Source of the DNA: Escherichia coli 042
Lineage (GTDB): Bacteria; Pseudomonadota; Gammaproteobacteria; Enterobacterales; Enterobacteriaceae
Direction: 5' to 3' (one strand)
DNA length: 64,000 bases
Assembly: GCF_000027125.1 (NCBI RefSeq)
Contig: NC_017626.1
The position numbers are program-made. This document shows, piece by piece, positions 21,001-24,000 of the stretch (positions within the stretch are counted from its first letter, which is position 1; every line of letters begins with the position of its first letter).

Positions 21001-24000
21001 GAACGCCAGCACCATGCCAATCGACAATATCGGCCACTTCAGACTAATTAGCGTTTCGGCAAAGACGCCAATCCCTTTCTTGATGCCCACGCCGAGGATG
21101 AAGATAGAGATAATCGCCGCAATAAAAATAGCGGTGCCGCCAGCTGAGAGAGGGTCGAATTTAAACACCGCATCCATTGGCGTTGGTTGGGCGACAATGG
21201 GTGCCGCTTTCAACACTTGTTGATGCAAATGAGGGATCTGGAAATTAATCACCAGTGAATAAAACGCGCCGCCCGGAGCAAATAACGCTTTAAACGGCTT
21301 CATGGTCCAGATGGTGACCAGCACCGTTAAGATTAAAAACGGTGACCACGCACGAATGATTTGCTCCAGACTATATTCTGAAGGCACGGGACCGCCAGAA
21401 GATGGTTTATTCACCACCATCGCACCTGCGGATTGTCCCATGCTGATTGCCGTTTCGGTATTTTTCGGCCGCCAGACTTTAAGGAATAAAGCGAGTGAGA
21501 CGATACTCACCAGCGCCGAAGTAATATCGGGCAGTTCGGGACCAATATAGTTAGAGGTAAAGAACTGAGTGACAGCGAAGCTTCCCCCAGCAACCAGCGC
21601 CGCTGGCCACGTCTCTTTCACCCCTTTCCAGCCGTCCATCATTGCTACCAGCCAGAACGGTACAAGAACCGACAGGAACGGTAACTGACGTCCCGCCATT
21701 GCGCCAATGTGGAACGGATCGATTCCCGTTACCTGACCGGCGACCAGAATCGGCACGCCCAACGCACCAAACGCCACCGGCGCAGTGTTGGCAATCAGAC
21801 ACAGCCCCGCCGCGTATAACGGTTTGAAGCCCAGGCCCACCAGCAGCGCACCGGTAATCGCCACCGGCGCACCAAAGCCAGCCGCTCCTTCCAGCAACGC
21901 ACCAAAGGAGAAACCAATCAGTAACACCTGCAAACGCTGATCGTCGGTGATGGAGATAACCGAGCTGCGGATAATATCGAACTGCCCGCTGGCAACGGTT
22001 AATTTATACAGGAACACCGCCGCGACAATAATCCACGCTATTGGCCATAATCCATAAATAAAGCCATAGCCTGCAGCAGCAAATGCCATATCAATCGGCA
22101 TTTTAAAGGCGAATATTGCAATCAGGATAGATAATATAAGGGTTATTGCTCCAGCGACATGTCCTTTCAGACGTAATACCGCGAGTGCAACGAAGAAGAA
22201 TATTATCGGGATCAGGGCGACCAGAGCGGATAGCCCCAGTCCTCCCATCGGCATATACATTTGGGTCCAGGTAACCATATTGTTCAGTCTCTTATTATCT
22301 TTATATGCTTGATATACTTAAGGTTGTAATAAGCAAAAGAGGACTGAACTGTAAAATATAGGCGTTATACTTTACAGCAACAGTACGCTGCTAACGCAAT
22401 TGCTACCTCTGGCATAACAAGTATATCGGGTAAGGGTTTCTGTTCCGCACACGCAGGCGCAGAATATCGTTAAGATGTCCATATTGTTGTTTTAGGCCCG
22501 CTAGTAATGCGCTACGGGTATTTAATATTGTTAAACCCTGATAATCGCTCCGGTTATTTCCGGGATAAATGTACTACCGCAGTTACTATCATAGCCCCGA
22601 CAATAAAACTTGCCGGGGCTTTTTTGACGCTATTAATGACTTTCTTTTTCGCGTAAACGCCAGGCGTGTAATAACGGTTCGGTATAGCCGTTTGGCTGTT
22701 TCACGCCGAGGAAGATTAAATCGCTGGCAGCTTTAAAAGCACACGAGTTAGCGAAATTCCCCGCCATCGGACGATAAGCCGGATCGCCAGCGTTTTGCTG
22801 ATCAACCACTTTCGCCATATTCTCCAGCGACGCCTGCACCTGTTCTTTGGTCAGAATACCGTGACGTAACCAGTTGGCGATATGCTGGCTGGAGATACGC
22901 AGCGTTGCGCGGTCTTCCATCAGCGCCACGTTGTGAATATCCGGCACTTTTGAACAACCAATCCCCTGCTCCACCCAACGCACCACGTACCCCAGAATCC
23001 CCTGCACGTTGTTATCCAGCTCTTGTTGGATCTCTTCCACCGACCAGTTAGCGTTTTCAGCAACCGGAATAGTCAGCAGATCATCCAGCAGCGGTTCAAA
23101 TTCAGCATTGAACTCGCTCTGGGCAATGTTGGCTTGCACGCTCTGTACGTTGGTTTGGTGGTAGTGCAGCGCATGGAGCGTAGCAGCGGTTGGTGACGGA
23201 ACCCAGGCTGTGTTTGCCCCGGCACGCAGTTGGTCGCCCTTCTGGCTGTACATGTCTGCCATCAGGTCCGGCATTGCCCACATGCCTTTACCAATTTGCG
23301 CTTTACCGCGCAGCCCACAGAACAGGCCGGAAAGCACATTATTACGCTCGTAGGCTTTGATCCACGGCGTCGATTTCATCTGGTTTTTACGCAGCATCGG
23401 GCCAGCTTCCATCACCGAATGCATTTCATCGCCGGTACGGTCGAGGAAACCGGTATTGATGAACGCCACGCGGTTGCGCGCCTGAGCGATACAGCTACGC
23501 AAGTTCAGCGAGGTTCGGCGTTCTTCATCCATAATGCCCATTTTCAGGGTATTCGGTGCCATACCGAGCATTGTCTCAACGCGGGTAAACAGTTTGTTGG
23601 CGAACGCCACTTCCTGCGGACCGTGCATTTTCGGTTTCACAATATAGACGCTGCCAGTGCGCGAGTTTTTCTGCACTTTTAAATCATAGAGGGCAATCGC
23701 GCCAGTCATGACGCCATCAAGAATGCCTTCCGGGATTTCATTGCCTTCGCTGTCCCAAATCACAGGAATGGTCATCAAATGACCCACGTTGCGGATAAAC
23801 AGCAGCGAACGCCCGTGCAGAGAAATTTCAGAGCCGTCGGCAGCGGTGTACTGACGATCGTCATTCAGTTTACGCACGATTTGCCGACCGTTTTTCTCCA
23901 TTTTCTCTTGCAGAGTCCCCTGCATCAGGCCCAGCAGGTTGCGGTACAGCAGGATTTTATCTTCCGCATCAACCGCCGCGACCGAATCTTCGCAGTCAAG

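Follow-up and report, generated by a model that had tools for sequence, protein, structure and literature searches.

Organization of the glcB-glcA intercistronic region

The window analysed here, a 64-kb stretch of Escherichia coli 042 DNA, includes the E. coli glc locus, and its positions are converted to K-12 coordinates (NC_000913.3) by adding 3099001. Two genes of this locus, both matched to the MG1655 annotation, frame the region of interest. glcB, coding for the 723-aa malate synthase G, occupies positions 22633-24804 on the minus strand (b2976, NC_000913.3 3121634-3123805) and terminates with a TAA stop codon at 22635-22633. glcA, coding for the 560-aa glycolate/lactate permease, lies at 20596-22278 on the same strand and is the last gene of the operon, named glcDEFGBA (PMC10272880). 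Open reading frames and MG1655 annotation thus agreed with a preliminary description of this DNA, in which both genes were placed on the minus strand, opposite to the orientation of a T-run in their spacer. This spacer covers exactly positions 22279-22632 (354 bp).

A palindromic stem-loop, foldable on both strands, is found at 22593-22620, i.e. 13 nt past the glcB stop codon and, on the glc strand, upstream of glcA. AGCCCCG (22593-22599) pairs with CGGGGCT (22614-22620) and, past an A.C mismatch, the interior of the hairpin adds a CAA/TTG pairing (22601-22603 / 22610-22612) around a 6-nt loop. A T6 run follows on the plus strand at 22620-22625; many E. coli have T7 instead, and other lineages T5 or T4. 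The first T of the run is also the last base of the stem, leaving five unpaired T's behind it. This run is a U-tract for plus-strand RNA, and on the glcB strand it corresponds to an A-tract upstream of the stem.

The two strands are not equivalent. In the glcB sense, the structure AGCCCCGGCAA-GUUUUA-UUGUCGGGGCU forms 11 uninterrupted base pairs including one G.U (-20.1 kcal/mol); in the opposite sense, which is that of the small RNA candidate C0719 (see below), 7 GC-rich base pairs at the base are followed by the A.C mismatch and 3 inner pairs (-14.7 kcal/mol). When folded with flanking sequence, the plus strand reached -15.2 kcal/mol (z -3.7, with 1/200 shuffles as good) and the minus strand -21.6 kcal/mol (z -5.0, 0/200 shuffles). 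The AGCCCCG / CGGGGCT stem followed by T6 is thus present as initially described, and it folds better than shuffled sequences on both strands.

A custom scan for hairpins of -12 kcal/mol or lower abutting a run of at least 5 T's yielded 12 sites in the window, versus 4.05 +/- 1.5 in first-order Markov resamples, so that the chance expectation for the 354-bp spacer, both strands included, is about 0.02 sites. A simple terminator scanner missed the hairpin because, with the inner stem left out of account, its loop is longer than 8 nt. TransTermHP-style tail scores were 4.62-5.05 in E. coli and 3.97-4.14 in non-coli lineages for the plus strand. For the minus strand, a score of 2.15 was obtained for the E. 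coli tail AUGAUAGU (3 U in 8) and of 2.72 for the slightly more U-rich tail of other lineages, AUUAUAGUU.

C0719 and the plus strand

The single Rfam match recorded between positions 20000 and 25500 was the sRNA candidate C0719 (RF00117), on the plus strand at 22357-22578. The match obtained with cmscan was full length (model positions 1-222 of 222) and scored 297.1 bits (E 3.3e-78, for a gathering score of 50); the E. albertii homolog reached 272.7 bits. C0719 therefore converges on glcB and is antisense to the RNA between the glcB and glcA cistrons. Its match stops 15 nt before the hairpin, which lies outside the RF00117 model. The preliminary description had suggested that the hairpin might mark the end of an unannotated plus-strand transcript. 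This agrees with the position of the match and with the fact that the current RefSeq annotation of MG1655 lacks C0719, yet the transcript is not a new one since it is already catalogued in Rfam. C0362, from the same array-era set as C0719 (Tjaden 2002), is likewise absent from it.

Published work treats C0719 as a predicted sRNA. Its RNA-seq counts are low and rise in transition and stationary phase; the library behind them was made by adapter ligation of small RNAs, a procedure that by its nature preserves strand information, and they were assigned to the plus strand. A transposon insertion at C0719 reduced group II intron retrohoming, over-expression was without biofilm or motility phenotype, and C0719 is one of the variable sRNAs that some E. 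coli/Shigella branches have lost. The accessible C0719 literature gave no defined 5' or 3' ends, targets or function.

At the level of anatomy, the plus strand displays what is expected from an intrinsic terminator, namely a stable GC-rich stem-loop directly followed by U6-U7. It differs from typical examples by the internal A.C mismatch of its stem and by its lack of a documented 3' end: no plus-strand end near K-12 3121621-3121627 occurs in the curated Term-seq lists of Adams et al. 2021 (LB 0.4, LB 2.0 and M63), an absence that the low expression of C0719 makes less telling. The terminator-like architecture pointed out for this orientation was thus confirmed, whereas an RNA end at the T-run was not recorded in these three growth conditions. 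The plus-strand reading of the hairpin shares locus and strand with C0719 (RF00117; EcoCyc G0-8912) and differs from it by lying 15 nt beyond a model whose ends are array-era coordinates. The hairpin is probably the real 3' end, i.e. the terminator, of C0719, in which case the Rfam and EcoCyc coordinates would fall about 45 nt short of it.

RNA ends on the glc strand

Term-seq of MG1655 grown in LB to OD600 2.0 mapped a 3' end at K-12 3121590(-), classed as 'primary' for glcB and as 'antisense' to C0719 (Adams et al. 2021 eLife, PMC7815308, Supplementary file 1). This end corresponds to window position 22589 on the minus strand, 44 nt past the glcB stop codon and 4 nt past the last base of the stem; the 61-mer printed in that study places it at the A of ...GGGGCUAUGA. 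The hairpin is thus demonstrably where many glcDEFGB transcripts end. The preliminary description had made its reading depend on a transcript 3' end on either strand, and one indeed exists on the minus strand. Its further suggestion that the hairpin may act in reverse on glcB finds some support in the same glcB-sense end, whereas the internal glcA promoter that it had invoked does not: a strict promoter scan of the spacer returned none, and a relaxed one returned best matches of 8/12 positions on either strand, with no strong candidate for C0719 or glcA.

As to the nature of this end, the minus strand combines a stable stem-loop with an in vivo 3' end, as intrinsic terminators do, and its stem is even the stronger of the two; however, the U-tract is missing. 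A 3' end directly downstream of a stable stem-loop devoid of U-tract is what defines the exonuclease-protective class: such structures halt PNPase and RNase II and thereby set the 3' ends seen at steady state (Dar & Sorek 2018, PMC6061677). The glcB end, 4 nt past a -20 kcal/mol stem without a U-rich tail, resembles members of this class. It differs from them in that an A-tract precedes the stem, a feature described as typical of intrinsic termini, not of Rho-dependent ones (Dar & Sorek 2018, PMC6061677), and in that no C>G skew is found downstream. Indeed, the spacer contains as many C as G (72 each) and so lacks the skew that would point to a Rho loading site. The bicyclomycin data of Adams et al. 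2021 (LB OD 0.5) contained no Rho region at the glc locus, but the LB 0.4 sheet of the same study contained no glc 3' ends either, so that the operon was probably little expressed. The supplements of TERMITe, SMRT-Cappable-seq and Cappable-seq contained no relevant rows for this locus.

Conservation and variation of the hairpin

The spacer was found wherever glcB is, i.e. in 4,541-4,543 of 5,426 complete E. coli genomes, in single copy and with at least 95% identity. Variation of the hairpin within E. coli was limited to T6 versus T7, one loop base and a C>T change by which the A.C mismatch becomes paired. In some E. coli lineages, a traT remnant stands in place of glcA and of 116 bp at the left end of the spacer and, in one strain, an IS5-family insertion left just 47 bp beside glcB. 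The hairpin was kept in both cases, so that lineages devoid of glcA and of the 5' part of C0719 still carry it next to glcB.

E. albertii was the only close non-coli relative among the matches listed in a GlcB genome scan. It displays the same order of glcB, hairpin, C0719 and glcA. Two more lineages, one albertii-like (L090/L112) and one distinct from it (L103/L104/L139), came from a metagenome DNA-pattern scan. The stem was kept, with substitutions, in E. albertii and in both of these lineages, all of them diverged Escherichia, even though identity in the hairpin zone is only 81-89%. In addition to the E. coli values given above, hairpin energies in the glcB and C0719 senses were, respectively, -18.1 and -14.7 kcal/mol in E. 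albertii, -21.1 and -21.6 kcal/mol in L090, and -16.8 and -14.6 kcal/mol in L103.

The glcB-strand stem was uninterrupted in every lineage, while that of the other strand was mismatched in 5 of the 8 variants, including most E. coli and E. albertii. Three independent substitutions in the lower stem produce a wobble pair on the glcB strand and a mismatch on the other; two substitutions in the loop-proximal stem go in the opposite direction and favour the C0719 strand. In E. albertii, G22616>A gives C.A on the plus strand and U.G on the minus strand. Stem position 8 is occupied by G-C, G.U or A-U on the glcB strand, the majority state of E. coli being an A.C mismatch on the opposite one. Alignment of 25 distinct spacers, submitted to alifold on both strands, revealed one-sided changes only and no double compensatory change. 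As far as can be judged from such comparisons, the substitution pattern leans to selection on the glcB-sense RNA, a tendency that is statistically not decisive. The plus-strand U-tract was shortened outside E. coli, to U5 and, in the L103 lineage, to U4.

A probable boundary for two convergent RNAs

The interpretation that we favour, with reasonable if far from complete confidence, is that a single palindrome serves as transcript boundary for both glcB and C0719 RNAs. On the glc strand, the 11-bp stem would define the 3' end of many glcDEFGB transcripts. Since no U-tract is present there, it would probably do so by terminating transcription weakly and leakily, by arresting 3'-5' exonucleases on RNA that had been cleaved or terminated farther on, or by both means. 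In each case, stable mRNA ending at glcB would outnumber the read-through mRNA that carries glcA, and glcA expression would presumably be lowered. The position of glcA, downstream in glcDEFGBA, implies that the element must be leaky unless glcA has its own promoter. On the plus strand, the stem and its U6-U7 would end C0719, or antisense transcripts emerging from glcA, ahead of glcB. Against this interpretation stand, for the plus strand, the absence of a Term-seq end, the weak expression of C0719, its absence from the MG1655 annotation, the lack of a strong promoter match and the shorter U-tract outside E. coli; for the minus strand, the U-poor tail and the balanced C and G content of the spacer; and, for both, the weakness of the strand-of-selection signal.

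A stem-loop lying between convergent units is reported to determine where RNA polymerases collide head-on, or where bidirectional termination occurs (Ju, Li & Liu 2019; Wang et al. 2022 preprint). The present element is comparable in that one stem-loop separates the converging units glcB and C0719. It departs from these bidirectional terminators by being only half symmetric, with an A6/U6 flank on one side and a 3' end documented on one strand. Moreover, one of its partners, C0719, is expressed at a low level, and expression of glcA requires read-through on the glc strand.

A first alternative, which we consider unlikely without being negligible, is that the hairpin works on the glc strand only, as a 3' stabiliser or attenuator of glcB; C0719 would then not be an independent transcript and the T-run would be the mere complement of an A-tract. 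The only mapped 3' end being on the minus strand, the lineage-wide integrity of the stem on that strand and the reduction of the U-tract to U4 in the L103 lineage all speak in its favour. So do the disappearance of C0719 from the MG1655 annotation, a fate shared with C0362, and the fact that the C0719 signal and glc operon expression rise in the same growth phase. On the other hand, the C0719 counts originate from a strand-aware library and were assigned to the plus strand, E. coli and albertii-like variants have, with few exceptions, a T5-T7 run directly abutting the GC-rich stem, and the conservation of the spacer (see below) is too high for a mere linker.

Conversely, the hairpin might be the terminator of C0719 only, the minus-strand end then being an incidental exonuclease stop without consequence for glc expression. 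The canonical plus-strand anatomy (GC-rich stem, U6-U7, tail score 4.6-5.05) and the location 15 nt past the Rfam match speak for this explanation. It appears clearly improbable, given that the Term-seq lists contain no plus-strand end and that the plus stem is mismatched in most E. coli and E. albertii while the minus stem is intact. The hairpin was also kept where the 5' part of C0719, together with any promoter, has been deleted, an argument that is weakened if these deletions are recent.

A chance palindrome or a REP/BIME-like copy without specific function here is barely credible: resampled sequence does produce about 4 terminator-like sites per 128 kb, but only some 0.02 are expected in the spacer, shuffles rarely or never matched the fold, the stem survives substitutions in diverged lineages and has a mapped RNA 3' end at its foot, and a REP/BIME or other mobile repeat was rejected by a median of 1 place per genome (megablast; blastn with word size 11).

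The hairpin itself is an ordinary transcript-boundary element and brings nothing new: it was essentially already known, since its glcB-sense 3' end figures in a published Term-seq table and its partner on the plus strand is an sRNA candidate that had already been catalogued. What it indicates is a lack of uniformity in the glcDEFGBA operon, as many transcripts appear to end before glcA. In a separate study, over-expression of LldR lifted glcD mRNA above the rise observed for glcA mRNA (PMC10272880), an effect that would at least fit a partial uncoupling of glcA.

The conserved remainder of the spacer

The conserved spacer is more interesting than the hairpin, and no other part of the locus seems likely to reward further study. 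When E. coli was compared with E. albertii, L103 and L104, the whole glcB-glcA spacer displayed 93-95% identity, versus 90-93% for the glcB and glcA coding sequences, 65-80% for their four-fold degenerate sites and 73-79% for the neighbouring glcA-yghJ intergenic region. Within the spacer, the hairpin zone (22580-22632) was the variable portion, with 81-89% identity; the rest, about 300 nt, was more conserved than the flanking coding genes.

No small open reading frame accounts for this conservation, and sensitive blastn found no second genomic copy. A 36-aa minus-strand frame (22482-22372) was discarded on account of an in-frame stop in L103/L104, and a 49-aa plus-strand frame (22507-22656) on account of frameshifts caused by the T6/T7 polymorphism and of a stop in E. 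albertii. Folding of the whole spacer gave z-scores of -3.97 for the minus strand and -2.52 for the plus strand, and neither folding nor covariation tells which strand would carry a functional RNA.

Constraint above that of the coding genes argues, on comparative grounds, for a function of C0719 and/or of a leader or regulatory region of glcA. A rather speculative extension, to which we attach limited credence, is that the spacer constitutes a two-strand module. In such a module, a hairpin-ended C0719, cis-antisense and fully complementary to the intercistronic leader of the read-through glcDEFGB-A mRNA, would by its pairing act together with the leaky stem-loop to set the level or survival of glcA mRNA independently of the enzymes. 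Alternatively, the conserved spacer may be a structured minus-strand glcA leader, of which 'C0719' would be a mis-stranded shadow. The strongest conservation was recorded in the 78 nt beside the glcA start codon (22279-22356), which displayed 98.7-100% identity in the same comparisons and are a candidate glcA leader, promoter region or C0719 promoter.

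Conservation of the glcB-glcA spacer

The glcB-glcA spacer outside the hairpin (22279-22592) was more conserved than both flanking genes when identities were compared across lineages. Spacer identity to E. albertii and to the third Escherichia-like lineage reached 93-95%, as against 65-80% at four-fold sites of glcB and glcA and 73-79% in the glcA-yghJ intergenic region adjoining glcA. Conservation was highest in the 78 nt adjoining the glcA ATG (98.7-100% identity). Within 22279-22592, neither a conserved small ORF nor compensatory substitutions were found, and searches of genomes for a second copy of the spacer were likewise negative.

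The spacer also contains an imperfect inverted repeat with 12-nt arms (22349-22377, CTGTAAAATATA-GGCGT-TATACTTTACAG), which is 100% conserved in all lineages. On the glc strand (minus), its arms pair perfectly, including one G.U, while the plus strand displays one A.C. The annotated 5' end of the sRNA candidate C0719 (22357) falls inside this repeat, which may serve as a binding site for a protein or form an RNA hairpin within a glcA leader.

Annotation and distribution

C0719 and C0362 are both still Rfam families, although neither is annotated in the current MG1655 RefSeq record (NC_000913.3, 3121280-3121633 and 1551992-1552397, respectively). C0719 corresponds to EcoCyc gene G0-8912 and was still listed as such in the annotation of the 2021 Term-seq study (Adams et al. 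2021). Among 5,426 complete genomes of E. coli, about 885 lacked glcB and the spacer, in line with a published study (PMC3318445) that inferred loss of C0719 from phylogroup E and from some branches of Shigella.

Variation around the hairpin

Loss of glcA has occurred in some E. coli lineages, as recorded in TW08637 (L003, 2767-3239), 2014C-3051 (L008) and PEC408 (L002, 2874-4047), and the hairpin (stem 22593-22599/22614-22620) was retained in all three. In two of them, a traT remnant beside cptA replaces glcA together with 116 bp at the left end of the spacer. An IS5-like ISKpn26 element lies 47 bp from the glcB stop codon in one of the three, the same lineage carrying a type II Zorya defence system near the insertion. 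In strain Es_ST80_L1_NDM_10_2017 (L004, 1-109), the annotation gives glcA as a pseudogene with a frameshift, and both spacer and hairpin are intact.

A further variant was encountered in three metagenome contigs of the third diverged lineage (L103, L104 and L139), where a 6-bp duplication, GCTATT on the plus strand of the window, lies between the T-run and the glcB stop codon. It cuts the T-run to T4 and the stem is retained.

The scan of the window for terminator-like sites uncovered further strong hairpins followed by a T-run (-16 to -19 kcal/mol), located at 6073, 8735, 43018 and 58739 on the minus strand and at 16562 on the plus strand.
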